A DNA stretch of 64,000 nt from a virus (IMGVR_UViG_3300018053_000002:10063-74062), one strand, 5' to 3'. Positions 6,408 through 50,319 are shown, counted from the stretch's first letter. Numbers and translations are program-made. The notes: a model not told the origin generated them from the letters alone.

Positions 6408-6923
6408 ATGCCGCGGACCAAGAAGCCGGCCGGTACGGCTGTCAATCCACGCAATGGTCGTCGCGCGGATCTGGTCCCGATCGCCGGGGCACGATTCGAT
6501 CCGCCCGAGGGTCTTTGCGAAGAAGCGACGACGGCCTGGGACTCCTACTGGGAAGACACTGTCGCCTGCGTGATGACGCCGGTTGACCGGGCCGTGCTCG
6601 TGCGCTGGGTTCGAGAGATGGATCGTTATCTACGTCTGTCGACGGAGGCGGATCTCAACCCCTCGGTGCGCGGTTCGCAGGGTCAGCCGGTCGAGAATCC
6701 GCTCTACGCGACGGCCTACAAGGCGCTCTCGGCAGTGCAGGCGTGCGAGAAGCAGATGGGGATGGGCGCACTGAACCGCTCGGCTCTGGGCATTGCGGTG
6801 ATCACTGAACGCAAGAGCCTCGCCGAGATGAATGCCCGGTACGGGGGTGGCGACGATGCTGATCGCGACCGCCCTGCCATCGTCGCCGAGATCGTCGACC
6901 CGCGGAGAATCATCGAAGGCTGA
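6408..6923 (+). CDS. terS: terminase small subunit (P27-like)
   Basis: GSQGQPVENPLY motif; precedes TerL. Confidence 0.85.
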   Translation: MPRTKKPAGTAVNPRNGRRADLVPIAGARFDPPEGLCEEATTAWDSYWEDTVACVMTPVDRAVLVRWVREMDRYLRLSTEADLNPSVRGSQGQPVENPLYATAYKALSAVQACEKQMGMGALNRSALGIAVITERKSLAEMNARYGGGDDADRDRPAIVAEIVDPRRIIEG

Positions 6924-8478
6924 CGGCTGTCCGGCGTGTGGCTGGAATCCGGCCGACGAGCTGTGGCCCAGTCACGGTGACATCGCGGTGCAGTGGATCA
7001 GCGACAATTGCATCTGTGGCGATGGCGACTGGTTCGGCCAGCCCATCAGGTTGCGCCTCGACCAGCAACGCTTTCTCTGGCGCTGGTACGAGTATTGCCC
7101 CGAGTGCAACCAGTGGCGCTATGACGAGGCACTGCGCGGTGCGGCCACCGGCGACGGCAAAACCCAGTTCATCGCGTCGATCGTGGTGCTGGAGTTCGCC
7201 GGCCCGCCACAGATCGCGCCATCCTCACCGATCATCCCGATTGCCGCCGCGAGCTTCGACCAGGCCAATCTCCTGTTTAGTGCCGTGGCTACGATCTGTG
7301 GTGGCCGAGATCAGAGCGTGCGTGAGTCGCCGTTGCGTGAGTTCTTCGAGGTCTACGACACGGTGATCAAGTTCGCCGACGGTCGGCCAGGTCTCATCGA
7401 GCGCGTCGCCGCGGTCGCGGGAACCAACGAGGGTGGTCTGCCGACGCTTTTCGTGCGTGATGAGTTGCATGAGTGGGGCGACGTCGGAGACCGCCGGGCC
7501 CGTGTCGCCACCGTCATCGGGAAGTCCACCAACAAGCGGCGTACGCCTCACGGCTCGGGCCGGATCATCAGCCTGTCCACGGCCGGGTTCGACATCGACC
7601 ATTCTTTGCTCGGCGCCAAGTGCAAGCTCGGTGAGCGCGTGGTGCGGAATCCCTCGTTGTCGCCGCGGTTCCTCTACGACTGGCGCCAGGCGCCCGACGG
7701 GCTCGACTATCGGCTGCCGGCTGACCGTGAGATCGCGGTACGCGCTGCCTCCCAGGCGGCCGACGTGCTCTGGAACGTGCGAGACCGGGTCGACGACTGG
7801 GGAAAGCCCGAGTGGCCCGCGCATGAGTGGATCCGCTATTACGCCAACCGGTGGGTCGACGTAGCCGAGGAGAGCTGGCTCAAGGACCACCCCGCCGCGT
7901 GGGTGCAGTGTGAGGGGACCTGGACGTCTAGTCCGTCGAACCCGTTTGTGGTCTCGGTGGACATGGCGTTGCGCCGGGACTCGGTAGCGGTCTCCCGGAT
8001 CGAGCAACTGCCGGATGAACGCTTCGCCATCACGTCGCGAATCTGGGTTCCGACCGGTGCGCCGATCGACCACCTGGACGTGTTCAACCACGTACGCACG
8101 CTGGCCTACGGTGTCGGTTTCCGCGGTGTTGTGTACGACCCCCGATTCTTTGAGTTGCCGGGTCGGATGCTGGAGGACGAGGGCATCCTCGTGGTCTCCT
8201 TTGACCAGTCGCCGCAGCGGATGGCGCCGGCGTGTGGGCTCGCCTTCGATCTCATCGTCAATCAGCGGATCGTGCATGACGGTGACCCCGAGCTGGGCGC
8301 GCACATCAAGGCGGCCGTGAAGCGTGAGCAGGAGCGCGGGTTCACGCTGAGCAAGGGCAAGAGCAAGCGGTCCATCGACGCAGCGATCACCCTGTGCATG
8401 GGTGTCTGGGTCCTCCACGAGCCGGCCGAACCGGTACAGCCGTTCTTCGGGACCTGGCGCGCGAGAGGTGGGGCCTGA
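6856..8478 (+). CDS. terL: terminase large subunit
   Basis: Walker A GDGKT; Walker B RDELHE; nuclease VDMA...D, YDP, SIDAAI. Confidence 0.93.
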   Translation: MLIATALPSSPRSSTRGESSKADGCPACGWNPADELWPSHGDIAVQWISDNCICGDGDWFGQPIRLRLDQQRFLWRWYEYCPECNQWRYDEALRGAATGDGKTQFIASIVVLEFAGPPQIAPSSPIIPIAAASFDQANLLFSAVATICGGRDQSVRESPLREFFEVYDTVIKFADGRPGLIERVAAVAGTNEGGLPTLFVRDELHEWGDVGDRRARVATVIGKSTNKRRTPHGSGRIISLSTAGFDIDHSLLGAKCKLGERVVRNPSLSPRFLYDWRQAPDGLDYRLPADREIAVRAASQAADVLWNVRDRVDDWGKPEWPAHEWIRYYANRWVDVAEESWLKDHPAAWVQCEGTWTSSPSNPFVVSVDMALRRDSVAVSRIEQLPDERFAITSRIWVPTGAPIDHLDVFNHVRTLAYGVGFRGVVYDPRFFELPGRMLEDEGILVVSFDQSPQRMAPACGLAFDLIVNQRIVHDGDPELGAHIKAAVKREQERGFTLSKGKSKRSIDAAITLCMGVWVLHEPAEPVQPFFGTWRARGGA

Positions 8479-8666
8479 TGGTTGCACTCACGACGCGTGC
8501 CCGCGGTCTTGGGCCCATTGTGCTGACGTCGATTGGTGCCCTCGTCATCGGGGCTGGTTGGCTGACTCACCGGATCGTTGCCGGGTCCTGGTTCGCTATG
8601 ACCTGGATCGCCGCAGCGTTCATGGAGGGCTGGGCCTCGGCTCAGCGGCCACGTGTCGTTTCTTGA
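8478..8666 (+). CDS. small membrane protein
   Basis: Two hydrophobic segments; TGATG coupling; between TerL and portal. Confidence 0.6.
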   Translation: MVALTTRARGLGPIVLTSIGALVIGAGWLTHRIVAGSWFAMTWIAAAFMEGWASAQRPRVVS

Positions 8667-11382
8667 CCGCATCAACGCTCGGCACCGTGGCGAGACGCGC
8701 AACTCGATCGACGGGTGGGTCAGCGACTATCTGTTTCCGGCCTCTGGCATGTTCGGGTTCGGTGGCAACCAGTACCCGTACGGGCTGAACACGACCTACT
8801 CCCGGCTGGCCGTCCAGGAGATCTCCTCGACCTTGCCGGGGCATATGGCCGCGGTACGGGGCTGCCCGCCAGCATTCGCAGCGGAGATGGTGCGGGCGCT
8901 GGTGCTCTCTCAGACGCGCTTCACGTTCCGGAACCCGCCCAGTCATCCCAAGACGCCGCGGCGGACGTTTGGCACGGGGGCGCTCTCGTTGCTGGAGCAC
9001 CCGTGGCCGAACGCGACTACCGGCGAGCTGGTTGCCCGGATGGAATGGCACGCCGGTCTTGCTGGCAACGCCTTCGTCACCAACCGGACCGCGGGTCGGT
9101 TGCGGGTGCTGCGTCCGGACTGGGTAGCCATCCTGTACGGCAGCGACCAGGAACCGGAGATGGCCGCGCACGCGCTCGACGGCGAGCTGCTCGGCTATGT
9201 CTATTGCCCTGGTGGGTTGGTGTCGACGGGACTTTCCTTGGCGCCGGCTGGCGGTGGAGAGCTTTACACCTTGCTGCCTCACGAGGTCGCGCACTGGTCG
9301 CCGCTGCCTGATCCTGAGGGTGCCGGTATCGGGATGTCCTGGATTACGCCGGCCATCCGGGAGATTCAGGGTGACACCATTGCTGCGCAGCACAAGGTTC
9401 TGTTCTTCCAGAATGCGGCGACCCCGAATCTTGTGGTCAAGGGCATTCCGGCGCTGACGAAAGATCAATTTGATGAGATCGTCGGTGCGATGGAGGAGCA
9501 GCACGCCGGTATTAGGAACGCTTACAAGACCCTTTACCTGACTGCCGGCGCCGATGCCACCGTGGTGGGCGCCAATATGCAGGAGGTCGACTTCAAATCC
9601 ACGGTGGGTAGCGGTGAAACGCGGATCTCGTTCCTGTCGCGGGTGCCGGCACCGGTGCTGGGAATCTCAGAAGGACTCGCCGGGTCGAGCTTGAACGCCG
9701 GCAACTTTGGACAGGCCCGTCGCAACTTTAGTGACACCTGGGTGTACCCGACGCTGCAAGATCTCTGCGCTGCGCTCGTGTCGATGGTCCGGGTTCCCTC
9801 GGATGCCGAGCTGTGGTACGACGTCACGGACATGCCGTTGCTTCGTGAGGACGCGAAGGATGCGGCCGAGATCATCAATATTCAGGTTGAGGGTGTCACT
9901 AAGGCCGTTCGAGAGGGCTTTACCGCCGTTTCCTCGATCGCTGCGATTGCTGGTCAGAACGTCAATCTGCTGGTGCACACTGGTCTGACCTCCGTCCAGC
10001 TCCAGAAGCCGGGGGAGGATCCGAATGACCCGTCCGCCGGTGACACTGGGCCCGACGGTGAGCCCACCGATGATAAGACTCAAGCTCTGTCTGATGCGTT
10101 GGACGAGGTTTCTGCTAGTCGGAACGTTGAAGAGCGCGTGAAGGTGCCGAGGAAACGGCTGCCTAGTTCGCGTCACCGAGGGGGTGCGTGGGCGATGTCT
10201 ATGGACCCCCAGCTTCGGCATCGGACGTTGCAATTGATCGGGCTTGCGGATCGCAATGCTGTTCCTGACGATTCAGACGACCTTGACGAGGATGCGGCGG
10301 CGCTCCTCTGGGCTCTTCAGGAGATCGAAGACCTGGACGATGAGATCGAGGAGGCCCCTTCGGCTCGGAATCGAGCGCTTCGTCTGGCCGGTGTGGAGCG
10401 TGCATGGACCGCTGCCCAAGCCGCTAAGCATCCTCGCAATTTGAAGGGCCCGGGTGGCGGGCGGTTCCGGTCGTTGTCACAGAGGCTCATTGACTGGATG
10501 TCAAGCATGGGCAATCGTGAGGACAGTCCGTTTGATGGCTTTGACCGAAAGCAACTGGCAAAGGTTGCTAGAGCGCGTGGTCTGAAGGTCGATCGTAAGG
10601 ACGATCGGGATGCGATCATCGACAAGCTGGTTGATAACCTTGAGTTCAAGGATCCTGGGAAGAAGGAAAGCCTGAAGAAGGCGATAGCCGGGAAGAAGAG
10701 CCGGGCACTGCACAAGTCGGTGGCGGTAGAGAAGGACCAGTTTGGCCAGGAGATAGCCCCGAAGGCGGTCCCGAAGGCGGTCCCGAAGGCGAAGCCTGGC
10801 CCTGATGATGTCGCGATCAGCAAGGCGCTACGGTCGCTGTCCTCGGGAGAGTTTGCCAGTATCGATGGAAGCCAGATCGATGCGTTCATGGCGGCCATGA
10901 GGGGCCAGGATCCTCCGGTCAATCTCTCATACCTCAAGGTGAACGGTCCTGGTAATGGGAACCTCTATGACCGGCATCTGCGGGACATTCCCCGATCGGA
11001 GATGCCGCAACTACCGACGACCGTTGAGGACTTGCAGGCGTTCCGTCTCAAGCTCGCCGACATGAACGTCAAGACAACTTATGAGCAGGTTGACCCGCGA
11101 ACTCTCGTCGCGACACAGAGCGAGCTGAACGGTCCGAAGGTTGCGAAGCTGTTTGGTTTCATGCGCGAGGGCGGATGGCAAGAGGGTGGCGCGCTCATCA
11201 TCTCACGCGAGGGGGCCGTGCTGGACGGGCATCACCGTTGGGCTGGTGCTGCTGCTGCCCGTGCGGCCGGCAAGGACATCAACGTCACGGCACTCCGAGT
11301 TGACATGGGTATTGACGAGCTTCTGGACGTGGCGCAGACGGTGTCGCTTCCCCGTAAGTCGCTCGACGAGGCTCCGAAGTAG
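8653..11382 (+). CDS. HK97-type portal protein with long C-terminal extension ending in a ParB/Srx-like domain
   Basis: LLEHPWPN, GNAF, GMSWI, FFQNAATP, RVPAPVLG portal motifs in first ~450 aa; C-terminal LVATQSEL...ISREGAVLDGHHRWA. Confidence 0.88.
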   Translation: MSFLDRINARHRGETRNSIDGWVSDYLFPASGMFGFGGNQYPYGLNTTYSRLAVQEISSTLPGHMAAVRGCPPAFAAEMVRALVLSQTRFTFRNPPSHPKTPRRTFGTGALSLLEHPWPNATTGELVARMEWHAGLAGNAFVTNRTAGRLRVLRPDWVAILYGSDQEPEMAAHALDGELLGYVYCPGGLVSTGLSLAPAGGGELYTLLPHEVAHWSPLPDPEGAGIGMSWITPAIREIQGDTIAAQHKVLFFQNAATPNLVVKGIPALTKDQFDEIVGAMEEQHAGIRNAYKTLYLTAGADATVVGANMQEVDFKSTVGSGETRISFLSRVPAPVLGISEGLAGSSLNAGNFGQARRNFSDTWVYPTLQDLCAALVSMVRVPSDAELWYDVTDMPLLREDAKDAAEIINIQVEGVTKAVREGFTAVSSIAAIAGQNVNLLVHTGLTSVQLQKPGEDPNDPSAGDTGPDGEPTDDKTQALSDALDEVSASRNVEERVKVPRKRLPSSRHRGGAWAMSMDPQLRHRTLQLIGLADRNAVPDDSDDLDEDAAALLWALQEIEDLDDEIEEAPSARNRALRLAGVERAWTAAQAAKHPRNLKGPGGGRFRSLSQRLIDWMSSMGNREDSPFDGFDRKQLAKVARARGLKVDRKDDRDAIIDKLVDNLEFKDPGKKESLKKAIAGKKSRALHKSVAVEKDQFGQEIAPKAVPKAVPKAKPGPDDVAISKALRSLSSGEFASIDGSQIDAFMAAMRGQDPPVNLSYLKVNGPGNGNLYDRHLRDIPRSEMPQLPTTVEDLQAFRLKLADMNVKTTYEQVDPRTLVATQSELNGPKVAKLFGFMREGGWQEGGALIISREGAVLDGHHRWAGAAAARAAGKDINVTALRVDMGIDELLDVAQTVSLPRKSLDEAPK

Positions 11383-11424
11383 ACTTGAGCCGTGCGGTGC
11401 TACCGACGATGAGAGGGGAGGTAG

Positions 11425-11598
11425 ATGATGGCAGAAGGTAGAGAACTGAAGCTCGGTGGTGAGCCCACCACGCCGCCACCGGATCCTGACCAGCCGTGGC
11501 TATGGACCGGTGACGAGTCGATCGGGAAGAAGGGCTGGATCCTGGTGATCACTGACACCGGAGACGGTGTCCCCGAGTCACTTGATGACCTTGACTAG
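11425..11598 (+). CDS. small acidic protein (not in ORF track)
   Basis: GGAGG RBS; MMAEGRELKLGG...LDDLD, 57 aa. Confidence 0.55.
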   Translation: MMAEGRELKLGGEPTTPPPDPDQPWLWTGDESIGKKGWILVITDTGDGVPESLDDLD

Positions 11599-11815
11599 TC
11601 CCCTGTACGAGCGGTTGGTCGAGGTTCTTGGTACCCGTGATGTGCACCCTGACGTCCGTAGCAAGATCCAGGATGCGTACATAGAAGTTGGTGATACGGG
11701 CACCTGGGACGACCTGCCCGTGGACGTGAGGCAGATGATCGAGGAGTCCGAGAGGCTTCCGCGTCAGGCTTGGGACGACCCAGCCGACGTACCTCAGGAT
11801 CTCGACAAGCTCTAA
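11585..11815 (+). CDS. small acidic protein
   Basis: ORF; overlaps previous gene. Confidence 0.6.
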   Translation: MTLTSPLYERLVEVLGTRDVHPDVRSKIQDAYIEVGDTGTWDDLPVDVRQMIEESERLPRQAWDDPADVPQDLDKL

Positions 11816-11844
11816 AGGTCTGTTTCCTGGGCCAGGGGGTGGTT

Positions 11845-14800
11845 ATGCCGCACCCTGGCCTCCGTATATCCGCAGCCGAACGGCACCGGGCCATGCAGCT
11901 TGCTGGGCTGCTTGATGTGCGGCGAGTGTATAACCCGGCGCTACATCCCCGTATCTTGAGGGGCCCGGGTGGCGGTCAATTCCTGAGCAAGAAACTGGTG
12001 GCCGGTCAGCATCCGCACAAGGAGCCTCAGAGTACGGATCTTCTTCATGACCCTGCCAAGATCGAGGCGCTTCGTCAGACGGTTCGGCGTGCTCGGTCCC
12101 GATACGCGGGTCGGACCGCTGACGACCGGTTGGCTGCGATCAGTGCCTTGCAGGGATTTGACGGTGCTCCGACCGTTGTGCCAAGCGCTGAGATGGACCG
12201 ATTGCTGGCAACCGGGGACTTCATCGAGGTTTGGCGTGGCGTAAAAGGGTTCGGGGCAGCGCCTAGTCAAAAGACTGGTGGTAGCCCGGTCTCAACGACC
12301 AAGACCGCGGCTGCCATTAATGACGAGTTCCGTACCGGGCCGGCGTACTTCGGAACGGGCATCTACGGGAACGGGTTCTACTTTTCGACTGCCAGGGAAA
12401 CTGCGCAGGGATACGCTGATGACACAGAGGGCAGTCTTGTACGGGCGTTGATTCCTAAGGATGCCAGGATCGGACGGTGGCGTGCATTGCGTGAAGAGGC
12501 TCGCCGCATCAATGACCACCCGGGCGAGGATGGCACGCTTTATGACGAGGGTCGCTATGCCGCCGCCAGGGGTATTGACGTCATGGAGATTGACGATGAT
12601 TACCTTGCGACCCAGTTTGGCGTCAGGCCGGATACCCAGGGTGGCACTAAGTCGGCGTTCAATGTCCTTAATAGGTCCGTTCTGGTTGTCGAGGACAGTC
12701 CTTCGGCGGATGTGTTAGCCGAGAAAAAGAGGCGCCAGTTCCTTATGGAGGTGTCTACCTTCCCGCTCACGTCGATGGACTTCTCGGGCAAGGTCAGGCA
12801 TCGGGCGCTTCAGCTTGCCGGCATCGTCGGGGCCGATGAGGATGTCGAGGCGCTCCTGGTGGCTCTGGACGAGTTCCGGGCGTGGGATCCGGCTAAGCAT
12901 CCTCGTAACTTGAAGGATACTCCGGGCGGGGGCCGGTTCCGGTCACTTGTGGCTTGGATTAAGGCTGCGCTAAAGATCTGGGACGATAAGCTCCAAAGTA
13001 GTGGCGATACGGTGGGAGACAGTCCGCTGGCGGGGTTCAGTCATGAACAGCTACAGAGGGCGGTAAAGAAGCTAGGGCTCTCGGTGCGACCTGACGCGAG
13101 TCGCGCGGAGATTGAAGAGCTGTTTAACGCTGATCTTCGGGCCCGTATGACCCACGACGCCCTGATTGCCGGCAGGGCTGCTCATGCTCCACCTCCCCCG
13201 ATCGATGTGCTGATGCGCCGTCTGGCTCAGGAATCGTCGGCTAACCTCGCTGGGCTGGAGGTCCGGGGGTACGGGAACGAGCATCTGTATGCGAAGCATT
13301 TACGTGAGATCCCCCGGGACCAGATGCCGCAGTTGCCGGAGAACGTGGCTGGACTAACGCCGTTCCTTAAGGCGCTGAACGAGCGGGGCGTCAAGTCAGA
13401 GCTGGTGGACATGGATCCCCGGCAGTTGACCATGACCCAGAACCAGCTCGACAGCAAGAAGGTCGGTTACCTTTACGACGCGATCCGTGACAAGGGGTGG
13501 AGAGAAGAGACCGTCATGGTCGCCTCGCGGGAGGGTGCGATCCTGGACGGTCACCATCGATGGGCTGCTGCCTCCGCTGTTCGTGCGGCCGGTGTTGAGT
13601 TTGATCTTCACGTGCTTAAGGTCGATATGGGCATCGACGAGCTGTTGACGTTCGCTGATGGCTTTTCGGGTGTCAAGAAGTCGATGGAACAGGCGATGGT
13701 GCGTGACCGTACTCTCTGGCTCGCTGGCATCGTCGAGGAACGGAAATATAACCCGAGCCAAGCCCGGGTCCCGAAGGGTAGTCGGTACGGCGGTCGCTGG
13801 GGATCTGTCTCGGTCATGCACAAGCTCTGGGACCGTGCCAAGGAGGGTGGCTTCACCTATAACACCGTGAGCGGTGATCAGCCCACAACCGGGTTTGCGC
13901 TCTCCGTGTATCCGGACCGGTCCCGGGTCATCGCGACGCGCGATTTCACGCCGGCTTCCATCCAGGAGTACCGTGACGCCAACCGTGAGGTTCTGTCCAA
14001 GCCGAACCACTATCTCGGGGCATGGCGCGAGCGTGACGAGGACGAGGGCGTCGACCGGGTCTGGCTCGACGTGTCTATCGTCCAGAGTGACCGGGCTGAG
14101 GCTGAGCGGGTCGGTCAAGAGTTTGATCAGATCGCCATGTTCGACCTCGGTGAGGGTACAGAGATTAGTCTCGGTGGTAAGGGTGGAGAGGTCGGGCTAC
14201 TCGCGGACGTTGCACCCGAGAAGCCGGGGCCGAGAAAGAGGGCTAAGAGCAGGGCACCTCCTGCGCTCCCTGCTTCGACGACGGCGCAGTCTGACTCTGA
14301 TTACCAGCCTGGCAAGTGGAAAAAGGCTGACAACAACGTTGTCAAAGAAGAGTTTCTCGGGATGCTCCGGGACTACTTGCATCGGGCGGGCCTGTCCACC
14401 GAAGACGTTAAGCGCATGGTTGAGGACGAGCGGGACGACCTTCCTGACCCCCGAGCGGTCTACGAGAACGGTCCGCACTATCTTACTGTGTGGAGCGACA
14501 GGCCCATTGGCCAACTCCGGATGGGCGAATTGTTTGACGCCATCGACCGGTTGCAGACCACTAATCCCAGCAGTGATCCGCTCAGAATCTCCATTCGGCC
14601 TCAGCACGAGATGCCGGGACCGCCAGGTGTGGCAGTAGGCAAAGCGGCTGGAGCGACGATTCGGGGTACTGGCTCGATAATACTGAGTGATCGGATGATC
14701 GATGATTGGAACGACCCCGATCTGTTCGGCAACTTTATGCCGGTCCGCACCTCTGTTCCTCTGGGTGAATATGTTGTCACTCACGAGTGGGGCCACGTGG

Positions 14801-15006
14801 TTGATCACTCTGATGAGGACCCATTGGCTGAGTCCTGGCAGAACATAGTCTGGCAGCGAAACGCGAAATACTTGTCGATCTACGGGAACACTGAGTACTC
14901 CGAGGGTTACGCGGAGGCGTTCGCTGAGTGGTTCTTGACCAAGGGCCAGACAACCAATGTGGCGGCGCAGGCGTATGCTAAGGAATATGGATGGAAGCAT
15001 GGCTAA
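11845..15006 (+). CDS. multidomain (polyvalent) head-region protein: ADP-ribosyltransferase-like, ParB-like, unknown domain, zincin metallopeptidase
   Basis: VWRGV...GIYGNGFYFST...AQGYA; LDGHHRWAA; GGFTY...LGAW...WLDVS...DQIAMFDL; THEWGH...SIYG...EGYAEAF. Confidence 0.8.
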   Translation: MPHPGLRISAAERHRAMQLAGLLDVRRVYNPALHPRILRGPGGGQFLSKKLVAGQHPHKEPQSTDLLHDPAKIEALRQTVRRARSRYAGRTADDRLAAISALQGFDGAPTVVPSAEMDRLLATGDFIEVWRGVKGFGAAPSQKTGGSPVSTTKTAAAINDEFRTGPAYFGTGIYGNGFYFSTARETAQGYADDTEGSLVRALIPKDARIGRWRALREEARRINDHPGEDGTLYDEGRYAAARGIDVMEIDDDYLATQFGVRPDTQGGTKSAFNVLNRSVLVVEDSPSADVLAEKKRRQFLMEVSTFPLTSMDFSGKVRHRALQLAGIVGADEDVEALLVALDEFRAWDPAKHPRNLKDTPGGGRFRSLVAWIKAALKIWDDKLQSSGDTVGDSPLAGFSHEQLQRAVKKLGLSVRPDASRAEIEELFNADLRARMTHDALIAGRAAHAPPPPIDVLMRRLAQESSANLAGLEVRGYGNEHLYAKHLREIPRDQMPQLPENVAGLTPFLKALNERGVKSELVDMDPRQLTMTQNQLDSKKVGYLYDAIRDKGWREETVMVASREGAILDGHHRWAAASAVRAAGVEFDLHVLKVDMGIDELLTFADGFSGVKKSMEQAMVRDRTLWLAGIVEERKYNPSQARVPKGSRYGGRWGSVSVMHKLWDRAKEGGFTYNTVSGDQPTTGFALSVYPDRSRVIATRDFTPASIQEYRDANREVLSKPNHYLGAWRERDEDEGVDRVWLDVSIVQSDRAEAERVGQEFDQIAMFDLGEGTEISLGGKGGEVGLLADVAPEKPGPRKRAKSRAPPALPASTTAQSDSDYQPGKWKKADNNVVKEEFLGMLRDYLHRAGLSTEDVKRMVEDERDDLPDPRAVYENGPHYLTVWSDRPIGQLRMGELFDAIDRLQTTNPSSDPLRISIRPQHEMPGPPGVAVGKAAGATIRGTGSIILSDRMIDDWNDPDLFGNFMPVRTSVPLGEYVVTHEWGHVVDHSDEDPLAESWQNIVWQRNAKYLSIYGNTEYSEGYAEAFAEWFLTKGQTTNVAAQAYAKEYGWKHG

Positions 15007-15160
15007 GCGGGTGATCACCGACACCTCGGAGGGTCCGGTCTATACGGATCTTTGGGAGTTGTCTGATGAGCAGATCCGGCTCTTGGCCGTGTCTGGTAGC
15101 AAGGACGCGACGGAGGAGTTGGCTCGCCGTATCGCGGAGAGGATGCAGGCGGATGGCTGA
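14999..15160 (+). CDS. small protein after peptidase module
   Basis: Overlapping start; 53 aa. Confidence 0.55.
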   Translation: MAKRVITDTSEGPVYTDLWELSDEQIRLLAVSGSKDATEELARRIAERMQADG

Positions 15161-15290
15161 GCTGCGTGTTGCCATGATCCCTGGCGATGCCTCTGACGAA
15201 GAGATCGACCGTATCCACGCGGCCCTGGTCACGGACCCGCCACCGGATGAGCCAGATGATGAGCCAGACGATGAGCCGGACGAGGATTGA
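15153..15290 (+). CDS. small acidic protein with DEPD repeats
   Basis: Overlapping start; GATGAGCCRGAY tandem. Confidence 0.5.
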   Translation: MAELRVAMIPGDASDEEIDRIHAALVTDPPPDEPDDEPDDEPDED

Positions 15291-15339
15291 TCCATAACTG
15301 AAGGCTTGGGCTCTCTCGCCCACGTGATCCCTGAGGGGG

Positions 15340-15639
15340 GTGGCGTGGGCGATGTCTATGGACCCCCAGCTCCGGGATCGAGCGCTCCGGTTGGCTGGCG
15401 TTCGTGTGGCCGGCAAGGATGTCACCCCGGGCCACGATCAGCTCCACCACTACTGGACCCGTGGTCCCGGTCTCGCTAAATGGGCTAAGAGCCCTCACCC
15501 GTGGACGGCGCTTTACAACCATCTTGTCAAGTACGTAGGCCCCGAGCGCGCAAAGCGTATGGCTGCGCAGTGGCACAAAGAGGTCTTCGGCATCTGGCCA
15601 GGGGAAAAGAAAGGCAAGAATCCAGTCGGTCCCGGCTGA
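15340..15639 (+). CDS. small head-region protein
   Basis: LHHYW..GPGLAKW...HLVKY...WH..FGIWPG; start region duplicated inside the portal extension. Confidence 0.75.
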   Translation: MAWAMSMDPQLRDRALRLAGVRVAGKDVTPGHDQLHHYWTRGPGLAKWAKSPHPWTALYNHLVKYVGPERAKRMAAQWHKEVFGIWPGEKKGKNPVGPG

Positions 15640-15715
15640 GCGGGGTGCTTGTAACGGTAACTGGCCGGGCTCATATCCCGAGCGACTAAGGGTTCGATTC
15701 CCTTCCCCGCCACCA
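15639..15715 (+). tRNA. tRNA-fMet/Met (CAT)
   Basis: Acceptor (A)GCGGGG/CCCCGC(C) with 1:72 mismatch; anticodon arm CGGG-CTCATAT-CCCG; T arm AAGGG-TTCGATT-CCCTT; encoded CCA. Confidence 0.8.
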
Positions 15716-15750
15716 ACCCGCATCACACGACATCGAGAGGTGGTGCGGCG

Positions 15751-17337
15751 ATGACGTCTGTCCCGACGATGACTGTGCCTGTCCGGACCTGGGACCACCG
15801 GGCGGACTCGAAAGAGCCCTACGGTCCTGCGTCGAAAGCCCACTATGCCGACCCCGGCTACCAGAAGGACGGTCAGAAGCGCTACCCGCTCGACTCCGAG
15901 GACCATTGTCGAGCTGCCTGGTCGTACATCAATCAAGCGGCCAACGCAGCCAAGTACACGCCCGACGAGCTGGCCCGGATCAAGGGCCGGATCAAGGCTG
16001 CCGGGAAGAAATATGGCATCGAGTTCTCCGACCAGCGGTCACGGTCGCTGCGGTTCTTTGATGAGAGCAAGTACGAACGTGACCCCAAGAATCAGCCAAC
16101 CGGCGGCCAGTTCAAGACCAAGGCTGCGGAGAAGGCACCGGCCAAAAAGACTACCAAGAAGGCGCCCGCCAAGAAGGCGACGACGCGTCGGCCCGCAGCC
16201 AAGAAGGCTGAGTCATCTAAGGGTGATATGGCCTATGACCCGGACACCGGGCGTGGTCCTGGCTACGGCACAGCCGGTGGCGATGCGCGGGTCAAGCAGC
16301 TTCAGACCGCTCTGAACCGGCTGGGTCTTACCGATTCACGTGGCCAGAAGCTCAAGGTCGACGGGAAGTTGGGTCCCAAGACCACCCAAGCCATCAAAGC
16401 AGCACAACGACGCCTCGGCATGAAGGCGGATGGACGGGTGACTCCTGCCATGCTAGCTCAATTCTCCGGCGCCAAGTCGCTGTCTAAGAGAGCGAAACCC
16501 AAGAACTGCACCTGTGGGTCCGTGGAATGCATCGCCGACGAATGTGGGGATGACACGGAGTACCGCCGGACTGTGCCAGACGTCTGCGTGCGCGCGTTCG
16601 ACTTCGAGTCACGTTCTCGCGGTGGCGATGGGCGCACGCTGGAGGGCTACGTGGCGGTGTTCGGTGCTGTTGCGCGGATCGCTTCCAGTCAGGGCGGTGA
16701 CTTCGACGAGGAGATCCATCGCGGCGCATTCGACGACTCGCTGGGACGCTCTTTCCCGGTAATGCAGTTCGACCATGGTCGTGACACCCGTGTCGGGTCA
16801 GTGCCGATCGGGGTCTATGAGGTGTTCGAGCCCGACAGTCGTGGCTACTTCGTCCGCGGCAAGCTGCTCGACAACCCCGTCGTGGAGCCGGTCCGGCAGG
16901 CCATTACCGCGGGCGCCATCCGTGGCATGAGCTGGCGGATGATGGTCGACCCCGCCAAGGGGTCCCGATGGACCCGTCGCAGTGGCCAGGTCGACAAGCG
17001 CGATGTGATCCGGGCCGATGTTCCGGAAGCCGGGCCCGTCGTTTTCCCGGCCTATGACGCCACTACTGTTTCTGTCCGCTCGATCCTCGCGGCAATGCCA
17101 GAAGAGGAACGAGCGGCACTCGTCCGTGAGCTTGCAGCCGAGGTTCGGCTCGCCGTGGACCTTAATGACTTCACCGGGCGATCGAGTGCATGGAGCACAG
17201 ATGGCGGTGAACTCGGCCCCGAACGGCAGGAGCCAGAGGAGCCAACCAGCACAGACATAACCGCCCGCTTCCATGACCCTGATCCGGCTCAAGCCGGTAG
17301 GGAACGGTTGCTACGCCTACAAGGAGTTCTTAAGTGA
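15751..17337 (+). CDS. HK97-family prohead protease with N-terminal accessory and peptidoglycan-binding domains
   Basis: YADPGY...RYPLD...RAAWSYI; VKQLQTALNRLG...VDGKLGPKT...AQRRLG (PG-binding); LEGYVAVF, FDHG, GMSW, GPVVFPAY protease motifs. Confidence 0.9.
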   Translation: MTSVPTMTVPVRTWDHRADSKEPYGPASKAHYADPGYQKDGQKRYPLDSEDHCRAAWSYINQAANAAKYTPDELARIKGRIKAAGKKYGIEFSDQRSRSLRFFDESKYERDPKNQPTGGQFKTKAAEKAPAKKTTKKAPAKKATTRRPAAKKAESSKGDMAYDPDTGRGPGYGTAGGDARVKQLQTALNRLGLTDSRGQKLKVDGKLGPKTTQAIKAAQRRLGMKADGRVTPAMLAQFSGAKSLSKRAKPKNCTCGSVECIADECGDDTEYRRTVPDVCVRAFDFESRSRGGDGRTLEGYVAVFGAVARIASSQGGDFDEEIHRGAFDDSLGRSFPVMQFDHGRDTRVGSVPIGVYEVFEPDSRGYFVRGKLLDNPVVEPVRQAITAGAIRGMSWRMMVDPAKGSRWTRRSGQVDKRDVIRADVPEAGPVVFPAYDATTVSVRSILAAMPEEERAALVRELAAEVRLAVDLNDFTGRSSAWSTDGGELGPERQEPEEPTSTDITARFHDPDPAQAGRERLLRLQGVLK

Positions 17338-18821
17338 GCACCGCCACTCGCACCGCCGTTCGTGATGACGACGGCAACCGCGGGTTCGACCTGACCATGG
17401 AGGACCTGCAAAACAAGACACCGGAGGATCTGCGCGACATCATCAGCATCACGGAGGCTCACCTTCGCGAGCTGCACCAGGACGAGCGTGGTTCCCTGCG
17501 CATCCTGGACGAGGCCGAGCAGGCTGCATTCGACATTGCCATGGAGATCCGCAACGCGGCCATGGACATGCTCGACAAGCACAACGAGATCCGGTCCGTG
17601 CTCCAGCGCCGGCCAAAGTCGGTTGAGCGTGCGCTGTCCAGCATGGGCCACCGTGATGACGACCCGTACTCGAACGTGCGGCGTATGACCCATGCCGAGG
17701 CTCGTGACAAGGCACTTCGGGTGCTGGACACGCGCGAGGCTAAGTCGTCGCTCAGCGCTCCGCAGATGGACCAGGTTGAGAAGCAGGTCCGTCGGGACTC
17801 TGACATCGCCAAGCGGTTGCTGGTCACCGAGACCGAGCACTACCGCAGCGCATGGATGAAGGTTGTCACCGATCCCAACGGGATGGGTCTGCTCGACGAC
17901 GAGGAGCGTAACGCCCTTCGCGCCTACCAGGAATACCGGGCAATGTCCGAAGGTGTCACCACCGCAGGTGGATTCGGAATCCCCGTATTCATCGACCCAT
18001 CTATTATCCTCACTGCCCAGGAATCGGGCAACCCGTTCCTCACCCTGGCCCGTCAGGTCACCGTCAACACGAACGCCTGGAAAGGTGTCTCGTCCGCCGG
18101 TGTCACCTGGCAGTTCCAGGCCGAGGCGGCCACGGCCACGGACGCAAGCCCGGTGCTCGCTCAGCCGTCTGTCACAGTGTTCATGGCTCGTGGTCTGATC
18201 CCCTTCTCCATCGAGGTTGGCCAGGACTACCCGTCCTTCGCCGACGAGATGGCGACTCTGCTCGCGGCCGGTTACGACGAGCTGCTCGTGGACAAGTTCA
18301 CGCGCGGCTCTGGCTCCAACGAGCCGAGGGGCATCCTCACGGCCCTGTCCGCCAACACAAACGTCCGCATCACGCTGACGACTTCTGGCTCCATCGGTTC
18401 GCCTGACCCGTACAAGGTGTGGGCGGCCCTTCCCCAGAAATTCCGTCGTCGCGCCAACTGGCTTATGTCGGTTGACGTCAACAACAAGTTCCGCCAGCTC
18501 GGTACTGCGAACGTGTTCCATGCGTACACGCAGAACCTTCCGGCGGAATGGGCGGACATTCTGTTCGGTAAGGGTGTCTACGAGAGCCCGTACATGCCGG
18601 ACTCGACCACCTCGACCTCTGCGACGACTGGTCTGGCCGTCGTTGGGGACTGGCAGAACTACGTCCTGGCCCGGCGCGGCGGCATGACCGTCGAGCTGAT
18701 CCAGAACTTGGTTGACGTGACCACCAACATGCCGACCGGCCAGCGCGCCTGGTTCGGGTACGCACGTATCGGTGGCAACTCGGTCAACGACCTCGGCTTC
18801 CGGCTGTTGGTCAACACCTGA
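17334..18821 (+). CDS. major capsid protein (HK97 fold, with delta domain)
   Basis: Coiled-coil N-terminus; YR|AMS...GGFGIP; GSGSNEPRGI; VVGDW; ARIGG. Confidence 0.93.
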   Translation: MSTATRTAVRDDDGNRGFDLTMEDLQNKTPEDLRDIISITEAHLRELHQDERGSLRILDEAEQAAFDIAMEIRNAAMDMLDKHNEIRSVLQRRPKSVERALSSMGHRDDDPYSNVRRMTHAEARDKALRVLDTREAKSSLSAPQMDQVEKQVRRDSDIAKRLLVTETEHYRSAWMKVVTDPNGMGLLDDEERNALRAYQEYRAMSEGVTTAGGFGIPVFIDPSIILTAQESGNPFLTLARQVTVNTNAWKGVSSAGVTWQFQAEAATATDASPVLAQPSVTVFMARGLIPFSIEVGQDYPSFADEMATLLAAGYDELLVDKFTRGSGSNEPRGILTALSANTNVRITLTTSGSIGSPDPYKVWAALPQKFRRRANWLMSVDVNNKFRQLGTANVFHAYTQNLPAEWADILFGKGVYESPYMPDSTTSTSATTGLAVVGDWQNYVLARRGGMTVELIQNLVDVTTNMPTGQRAWFGYARIGGNSVNDLGFRLLVNT

Positions 18822-49992: not shown

Positions 49993-50319
49993 GTGACCTC
50001 GACCTTTGCCGGTGCATCGGCCAAGGAGATCCGGGCGGCCATCGACGACATTGCTCGGGCAATCAAGGCGATCCGGGGCCTGGACGAGATGCCGTCACGT
50101 GAGGTCGCGATGCGCCATATGATCCAGTTCCTCGACGGTCTCATGGACCAGCTCGTCGCAGCCGGCGTCTGTCCCGAGCGACCGGAGCTGCGTGGTGATC
50201 AGCAACTCGGGCTGTACCCCTGCCCGTTCTGTAGCTGCATGGTCCTGGCGGGGGAGCCTCATAGCCCTCACGATCAAGGGTGCGCGCTGGGCCTGGACGG
50301 GTTCGGGATATGGCGGTAA
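49993..50319 (+). CDS. hypothetical protein
   Basis: AAGGAGG RBS; CPFC...PH...C. Confidence 0.6.
   Translation: MTSTFAGASAKEIRAAIDDIARAIKAIRGLDEMPSREVAMRHMIQFLDGLMDQLVAAGVCPERPELRGDQQLGLYPCPFCSCMVLAGEPHSPHDQGCALGLDGFGIWR

Follow-up and report, generated by a model that had tools for sequence, protein, structure and literature searches.

A 64,000-nucleotide stretch of DNA (the window) that belongs to an uncultured, soil-type phage and forms part of the ~74-kb IMG/VR record IMGVR_UViG_3300018053_000002 (~81% complete by the CheckV estimate, ~63% G+C) carries a block of head genes in which one short peptide with the pattern R-x-R-x-(L/M)-x-L-x-G, here called M1, occurs seven times in four adjacent genes, all on the plus strand (Table 1). 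We hypothesize that the block from portal to capsid encodes capsid cargo arranged by a repeated junction cassette, in which M1 would be a clip-off address peptide that holds the cargo on the scaffold (delta-domain) layer of the prohead, in a manner resembling the capsid targeting sequence (CTS) of phage T4. The helical C-terminal tail of the prohead protease would use the same scaffold contact as M1, and this protease, which belongs to the S78 family, would cut after Arg and free each module header-first. Judged from the sequences compared, the whole combination of cassette-organised cargo, M1 as a clip-off address and Arg cutting by the S78 protease stands at about even chances of being correct. 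Its parts differ, in that the proposed cutting after Arg has good comparative support and the proposed role of M1 as an address on the scaffold layer has moderate support. A T4-like scheme assembled from HK97-type parts would be the most economical model, and the modules carried by the portal and by the large protein that follows it are probably taken into the capsid and released there by cutting.

The seven M1 peptides had been picked out in an earlier interpretation of this DNA by a model without database searches (the sequence-only reading), and each is found where it was reported, on the plus strand. From the composition of the four proteins, M1 is expected 0.013 times in their 2585 residues, and two or more matches were obtained in just 2 of 20,000 shuffles. 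A six-frame scan of the whole window adds a single match, at 50005 on the minus strand, which is consistent with chance. The invariant R, R, L and G of M1 are each written with 3–5 synonymous codons among the seven copies, which share just 63–82% DNA identity, and because these residues are kept through such synonymous changes it is the M1 peptide itself, and not a DNA repeat, that is under selection. Its position is also stereotyped. In the stand-alone genes of the window M1 begins at residue 13 (large protein; start at ATG 11845, not as earlier read) and at residue 8 (small protein; start at ATG 15352), and in stand-alone proteins elsewhere it begins at residue 6–8 in ~13 representatives and at residue 16 in one more. 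Further flavours of M1 are borne by P0007, P0017, P0164, P0185 and P0189; that of P0164, P0185, P0189 and of P0133 is L-V/Q-M-L-G-V-V.

Comparison with relatives and with protein-collection homologues places M1 within a larger cassette that consists of M1, here basic and of the form R-x-R-x-L-x-L-A-G-I/V, often V-R-x-x-P, sometimes an acidic helix M3 (D-D-x3-A-L-L-x-A-L-D-E-F/W), an Arg and a header. M3 sits between M1 and the tag in the portal of the window and in L032, L031, L035, P0007, P0017 and P0036. Two header types were recognized, namely (W/Y)-(N/D)-P-x-x-H-P-R..G-G-x-F (the HPR header) and A-A-G-H-D-V-T-P-G-H-D. All four instances of an Arg followed by the first type that the sequence-only reading had listed, including the variant R/KYNPSQAR..GGRW, were recovered, as was the related R/FFDESKYERD..GGQF inside the protease (Table 1). 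When 1.84 billion representatives were searched with a profile of the cassette, 209 protein clusters reached E ≤ 0.001; the M1 pattern is present in 29 of the 150 best, and a few of these 29 are probably chance matches. The spacing from M1 to Arg ranges from 2 to ~30 residues, and the cassettes are placed exactly at module boundaries and former gene starts. On this comparison M1 is mostly an N-terminal or inter-module leader within the larger cassette, and its internal copies resemble the starts of once separate genes that became fused.

The portal offers an example of such a start. A 57-nt repeat (10180-10236 and 15337-15393, 82% identical) comprises the ribosome-binding site, ATG and leader of the portal copy and of the small gene, and the same GAGGTGCGTGGGCGATG precedes the proteases of L002 and L004. 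Since the portal extension is headed by an intact ribosome-binding site and ATG that are almost identical to the starts of the small gene and of the relatives' proteases, it would be a former separate gene or one that is also expressed separately. The repeat may mean that the extension is translated on its own too, or that the fusion is recent. As a separate observation, a 1516-residue protein of L031 (2349-6896) carries header variants after E-E-R or E-Y-R (G-H-P-H-P-G-Q-H-Y-T-H-G-W, K-H-P-H..G-G-Q-F and E-L-R-I-P-G-G-K-G-G-G-R-W), and the header family is therefore broader than H-P-R..G-G-x-F.

Where would the protease cut? An Arg two residues before the aromatic residue precedes 19 of the 31 internal headers across all loci, and nearly always does so within this capsid family. 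In the stand-alone tagged genes the start codon is 2–3 codons ahead of the aromatic and coincides with, or adjoins, the site that Arg occupies in internal copies; in several stand-alone relatives the N-terminus after removal of Met would equal that expected from cutting. The second header (AAGHDVTPGHD) is preceded by Arg in 22 of 23 contexts at loci with this S78 protease, whereas the preceding residue is Ala in all 12 contexts at loci without an S78 protease, and for 11 of these contexts the sequence reaches 3 kb or more downstream; in one stand-alone gene the residue is Met. The delta junction of the capsid, given as YR/AM in the sequence-only reading, does read E-Y-R202/A203-M, and D-E-Y-R/(A/T/V)-M-S-E-G is kept in the readable related capsids of the alignment. 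It would line up with the K103/S104 site of HK97. Because of the stand-alone starts, the E-Y-R capsid junction, the Arg before internal headers and the Arg/Ala split by protease type, we infer that the S78 prohead protease would cut cargo after Arg, as it would after the capsid E-Y-R. The same four comparisons, independent of one another, would fit a leader removed at a site like the capsid maturation site, as in T4-type systems, and the earlier suggestion of cutting after Arg gains comparative support from them.

The seventh M1 copy ends the protease, and the proposed likeness between M1 and the protease C-terminus is borne out among relatives, in that a conserved C-terminal peptide ends most of the ~35 related proteases compared. 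In the six frames of the window the tail is the best match to the M1 profile outside the training copies. An AlphaFold2 model of the protease has a catalytic domain with a predicted local distance difference test score (pLDDT) of ~95, followed by disordered residues 205-242 (~40 residues) and a helix at 246-257. The tails fall into three flavours, R-E-R-L-L-R-L-Q-G-V-L-K (window), L-R-Q-R-L-D-D-G-A-L-R-T-R-G-I-L (most relatives) and (T)-R-A-L-A-M/L-x-R-x-P-x-x-L-P (a third group). Co-variation of motif and tail among relatives had been set beforehand as a test of the idea, and it was assessed by taking the peptide just upstream of the small-protein domain, which serves as a fixed anchor, and comparing it with the genome's own tail. 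Cargo and tail share a flavour within a genome. The longest match is in L004, where the cargo L-R-S-D-V-D-D-D-S-L-R-L-R-G-I-L-V-D aligns over 18 residues (score 48) with the tail L-Q-Q-R-L-D-D-G-A-L-R-L-K-G-I-L-R-D, and other examples are S/Q-L-R-L-R-G-I with A-L-R-V-R-G-I-L (L068, L088), K-A-A-R-A-L-D-L-L with E-A-A-R-A-L-A-L-L (L067), R-D-R-T-L-R-L-L with R-A-R-A-L-Q-L-L (L060) and, in the window, R-D-R-A-L-R-L-A-G-V with R-E-R-L-L-R-L-Q-G-V. When the pairing of cargo and tail was permuted, p was 0.026 with 8 loci and 0.005 with 22 non-redundant loci, and no disagreement of flavour was seen in the lists read (3, 9 and 1 loci). Within clades, the likeness of cargo peptide and tail is not explained by descent alone. 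In four relatives the majority-type tail also gave a high-scoring match, to I-R-Q-Y-L-D-N-G-T-L-K-T; this peptide was treated as unrelated, as it lies inside what reads as an ADP-ribosyltransferase domain.

A third M1-like element was found in the capsid protein. A composition-corrected profile built from 22 cargo M1 copies only was scanned over 228,000 positions in open reading frames, and its top matches were the delta-domain helix E-A-R-D-R-A-L-R-x-L-D-D-R in almost every related capsid (13–15 bits) together with the protease tails of L028 (12.9 bits) and of the window (11.0 bits); the top list otherwise held one more true cargo copy and one likely spurious frame. M1 therefore resembles, in sequence, the delta-domain helix at least as well as it does the protease tail. 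The helix persists as E-L-R-A-R-A-L-S-A-I-E-K-M in capsids of Streptomyces prophages (L148 9735-11366) and in the solved capsid 9lw6, which is related to the window capsid at E = 3.7e-58; a literature search found no mention of PDB entry 9LW6. This element (E-A/L-R-x-R-A-L-x-x-L/I-D/E) is probably a functional site of the scaffold family.

The likeness of M1 to the delta-domain helix also brings into consideration a role for M1 as a protease-recognition element rather than a dock. According to this main rival hypothesis, M1 would be an exosite, an extended non-prime-side motif or a secondary cut site common to all that the protease processes (delta domain, cargo junctions and its own tail), and the tail would behave like a product or a self-substrate. 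A prohead protease is indeed expected to process the three classes of protein that have an M1-like peptide, and in every case M1 is followed, 2-30 residues downstream, by a predicted Arg site or a C-terminus. Moreover, five of the seven copies, once cut, would end in R-x-R-x-L-x-L-x-G plus 2–6 residues finishing in R or K, like the protease tail, and the capsid junction E-R-N-A-L-R-A-Y-Q-E-Y-R/A is in register with the portal copy R-N-R-A-L-R-L-A-G-V-E-R/A. However, a substrate motif would be expected in a fixed register, unlike the variable spacing between M1 and Arg, and the delta-domain helix, ~70 residues away from the capsid junction, hardly changes among relatives in which M1 and the tails differ in flavour. 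Structure prediction gives the tail as a helix and not an extended strand, and tagged cargo that has no M1 would still need to be cut. We consider protease recognition an unlikely, though serious, explanation of M1.

A different hypothesis is that the cassette of M1 and M3 is merely a flexible linker and recombination joint for module shuffling, with the likeness to tail and helix arising from the R/A/L/G-rich composition of high-GC DNA. The placement of cassettes at module boundaries and former gene starts is what such a joint would give, as are the duplication and rearrangement of modules between the portal and the large protein, and the match of the window tail barely exceeds the best chance match. 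A mere linker would not be expected to keep its invariant residues through many synonymous changes at 63–82% DNA identity, nor to hold the residue 6–8 position in stand-alone proteins, nor to yield matching flavours in independent loci, including the 18-residue match of L004, and after correction for composition the delta-domain helix and the tails remain among the top matches of the profile over 228,000 positions. For a linker and joint the chances appear slim.

Several results weigh against M1 as an address peptide. Five loci with HPR-tagged cargo (L014, L015, L022, L033 and L042) have genes that begin directly at the header, without M1, and several relatives without M1 also have a tagged protease N-terminus. 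Because M1-less tagged cargo occurs in several relatives, M1 would not be obligatory and, as far as sequences tell, cannot be the sole route into the head; it is often missing from relatives with HPR-tagged cargo. The window tail scores 23.7 against 23.0 for the best six-frame chance match. Across relatives M1 and the tails diverge but the delta-domain helix barely does, so that not all three evolve together. The co-variation comes from neighbouring, linked genes in roughly three clades and represents few independent events, and the cargo peptides of L032, L029 and L038 are matched best by a tail other than that of their own genome. In 80 more distant actinobacterial prophage loci, comparison of each tail with its own locus gave only noise and no matching cargo peptide.

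Could M1 bind something other than the scaffold? The portal extension, which bears M1, faces the capsid interior, and M1 is basic, so a portal, packaged DNA or a host target after ejection can be imagined as a partner, with M1 governing retention or exit instead of loading. If the cut falls after the downstream Arg, however, an N-terminal M1 would leave its module before DNA packaging, and the likeness to the scaffold helix and the protease tail suggests a role in assembly. Such a partner seems to us very improbable.

The address-peptide model has its closest precedent in T4, in which the CTS on the internal proteins IPI-III and Alt is removed by the gp21 prohead protease (PMC7411985). Here, as in T4, a short leader at the extreme N-terminus of a cargo precursor (M1 at residues 6–16) is followed by a predicted site that would match the specificity of the phage's own head protease, the cargo is proposed to reside in the head, and the leader is apparently portable between unrelated domains. 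The two leaders have no sequence likeness, however, and the protease here is of the HK97-type S78 family and not gp21. In place of a separate core, the capsid protein carries a fused delta domain as its scaffold, and M1 is present between polyprotein modules and at the protease C-terminus as well.

The maturation protease of HK97, gp4, reportedly has a C-terminal targeting region that makes this kind of contact with the scaffold. The window shares with the HK97 system a Pfam S78 catalytic domain, a flexible link, a short conserved C-terminal element behind it and a scaffold domain fused to the capsid protein. We know of no natural HK97 cargo that carries the protease tail peptide, whereas six cargo copies in this one genome resemble the tail and vary with it among relatives. 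Encapsulins offer another parallel, since their short cargo-loading peptides, with alternating hydrophobics around Gly, tie cargo to the inside of an HK97-fold shell. A portal, a protease and a scaffold domain are, to our knowledge, all absent from encapsulins, whose cargo peptides are not known to be clipped off. An encapsulin locus would have an HK97-fold shell without portal, terminase or tail genes; the window has a portal, a protease and a capsid with a delta domain, and is a tailed-phage head module.

The large protein recalls the phage-type polyvalent proteins, which include portal- and MuF-fused effectors and for which processing by an embedded zincin peptidase has been proposed (Iyer, Burroughs, Anand, de Souza, Aravind 2017, PMC5512222). 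It likewise is a large, putatively multi-domain protein encoded beside the portal gene, between it and the protease gene, and the portal bears a module too. Its four modules are bounded by cassettes, and they would include a candidate ADP-ribosyltransferase, a ParB-like module (one phrog_2859/DGHHRW match) and a candidate zincin, the matches to ART-PolyVal (E = 0.029) and to HEWGH/ATLF being weak. Homologues include fusions with NUDIX, portal (PF04860) and MuF (PF04233) domains. About 21% of the large-protein query matches polyvalent proteins at 40–53% identity, a figure that is not tied to any one module. The predicted cut sites here match the head protease. A text search of PMC5512222 found no 'HPR' or 'GGxF', and M1 could not be searched by name.

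The concepts of a T4 CTS, of C-terminal targeting of the HK97 protease and of polyvalent proteins are known. What is added to the sequence-only reading is the wider cassette, the likeness to the delta-domain helix and the M1-less tagged cargo of relatives. Apart from T4 and the giant phages, little is understood of how tailed phages with HK97-type heads choose the proteins within the capsid. A broader proposal is that in fused-scaffold HK97-type phages cargo is selected by a portable address peptide that co-evolves with the tail and copies the scaffold helix, such that any domain placed behind M1 (with M3), Arg and header would be loaded and then released; we offer this generalization tentatively and lean somewhat against it. 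If it were true, the capsid contents of uncultured actinophages could be read from sequence (candidate ADP-ribosyltransferases, ParB-like proteins, peptidases and cell-wall binders), and M1 might serve to load chosen proteins into HK97-fold shells in a programmable way. The natural variation in three flavours amounts to a set of ready-made specificity swaps.

Table 1. Features of the head-gene block, with positions counted from the first nucleotide of the window.
Feature	Position	Strand	Basis or remark
548-residue open reading frame	6832-8478	+	First in head block
Portal gene, 909 residues	8653..11382	+	Pfam Phage_portal at residues 110-413, E = 1.4e-23; phrog_12 portal
Portal C-terminal extension, 400 residues, cargo-bearing	within 8653..11382	+	phrog_2859 at residues 731-898
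Internal ribosome-binding site and ATG (10195), intact, in portal frame	10180..10209	+	Resembles small-gene start
M1 copy 1, RHRTLQLIG	10216..10242	+	Portal extension
Acidic amphipathic helix M3 (D-E-D-x3-A-L-L-x-A-L-x-E)	10285..10335	+	Recurs between M1 and tag in relatives
M1 copy 2, RNRALRLAG	10366..10392	+	Portal extension
Predicted cut R583/A584, HPR header AW..KHPR..GGGRF	10399..10467	+	Motif
ParB/Srx-like module, DGHHRW	10843..11346	+	phrog_2859, E = 6e-18; fold assigned from motif alone
Polyvalent (large) protein, 1053 residues, four modules	11845..15006	+	Same start in protein collection (P0006)
M1 copy 3, RHRAMQLAG	11881..11907	+	Residue 13 of large protein
Predicted cut R27/V28, HPR header VYNPALHPR..GGGQF	11923..11982	+	Motif
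Module 1, candidate ADP-ribosyltransferase	12022..12774	+	Pfam ART-PolyVal E = 0.029, below curated cut-off
M1 copy 4, RHRALQLAG	12796..12822	+	Large protein
M3 helix, predicted cut EFR/AW, HPR header AWDPAKHPR..GGGRF	12835..12939	+	Motif
Module 2, ParB/Srx-like, DGHHRW	13276..13677	+	phrog_2859, E = 7.8e-19
M1 copy 5, RDRTLWLAG	13702..13728	+	Large protein
Predicted cut EER/KY, variant header KYNPSQAR..GGRW	13741..13800	+	Motif
HEWGH zinc-peptidase motif, last module	14782..14796	+	Motif; sole Pfam match a weak one to ATLF
Small protein, 95 residues: M1 leader and four-helix domain	15352..15639	+	phrog_6439, E = 1.1e-20
M1 copy 6, RDRALRLAG; predicted cut GVR/VAG; second-type header VAGKDVTPGHD	15373..15438	+	Arg invariant in alignment A2
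Prohead protease polyprotein, 528 residues: DUF6582, degenerate header, PG_binding_1, S78, tail	15751..17337	+	Pfam: Peptidase_S78 (PF04586) 1.7e-20, DUF6582 7e-19, PG_binding_1 6.9e-14
Degenerate header R/FFDESKYERD..GGQF after R-S-L-R (protease residues 102-121)	16054-16113	+	Motif
Protease tail RERLLRLQGVLK, M1 copy 7	17299..17334	+	Extreme C-terminus
Major capsid protein, 495 residues, with 202-residue delta (scaffold) domain	17334..18821	+	Pfam Phage_capsid at residues 212-492, E = 1.8e-28
Conserved delta-domain helix EARDKALRVLDTR, M1-like	17697..17735	+	Cargo-profile match
Predicted maturation site E-Y-R202/A203-M	17931..17945	+	E-(Y/F)-R and variable residue conserved in alignment

On the plus strand the block runs in the order 548-residue open reading frame (probably the large terminase), portal, large protein, 95-residue protein, protease and capsid. 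Relatives of the S78 protease sit on contigs binned to Actinomycetota (Jiangellaceae, Streptomyces and Micromonosporaceae), and for this reason the host is probably an actinobacterium. No match was obtained when the block was searched by megablast, or one cassette by tblastn, against an isolated-phage collection, and scanning P0189 against viral contigs found nothing. The portal, large-protein, small-protein and protease genes (8653-17337) all lie in one reading frame, an arrangement with a chance of roughly 1 in 27. A single read-through polyprotein spanning the four was ruled out by the many stop codons between the genes.

The ParB-like modules of the portal (11202-11270) and the large protein (13524-13592) share a 69-nt core that is 77% identical and are paralogues, and this type of cargo is present twice, once tethered to the portal and once free. 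Module 1 of the large protein is possibly an ADP-ribosyltransferase. The head protease has an N-terminal DUF6582 and a peptidoglycan-binding domain (PG_binding_1). In relatives such as L014 an HPR header and what reads as the same cell-wall-binding domain stand ahead of the protease, and the cell-wall-binding piece may be released from the protease precursor.

In the AlphaFold2 model of the small protein a disordered link joins a leader helix to a four-helix domain, with the leader not packed into the fold, and M1 as a part of that fold was ruled out on account of this separate helix behind a disordered link. Assignment of the domain to a known fold was rejected, as no PDB match was obtained. 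The four-helix domain (15406-15636; phrog_6439) is widespread in actinophage head modules and also occurs within actinophage fusion proteins of the protease, 'RNA ligase' and 'capsid morphogenesis' kinds. In the Gordonia phages GTE6 and Wizard (L008, L009) it either directly follows a different protease, as a fusion, or is joined to 2H-type 'RNA ligase' modules, and Gordonia phages with a different protease are rich in L-x-A-A-G strings.

A gene without a Pfam match that precedes the portal in L148 (5692-7404), and at the same position in ~12 Streptomyces prophage loci, encodes the M1-like peptide R-L-R-R/K-R-A-L-A-A-I-E-x-G, which is similar to the delta-domain helix found in these prophages. 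In the window, two small overlapping open reading frames of 57 residues (11426-11598) and 82 residues (11567-11815) separate the portal from the large protein.

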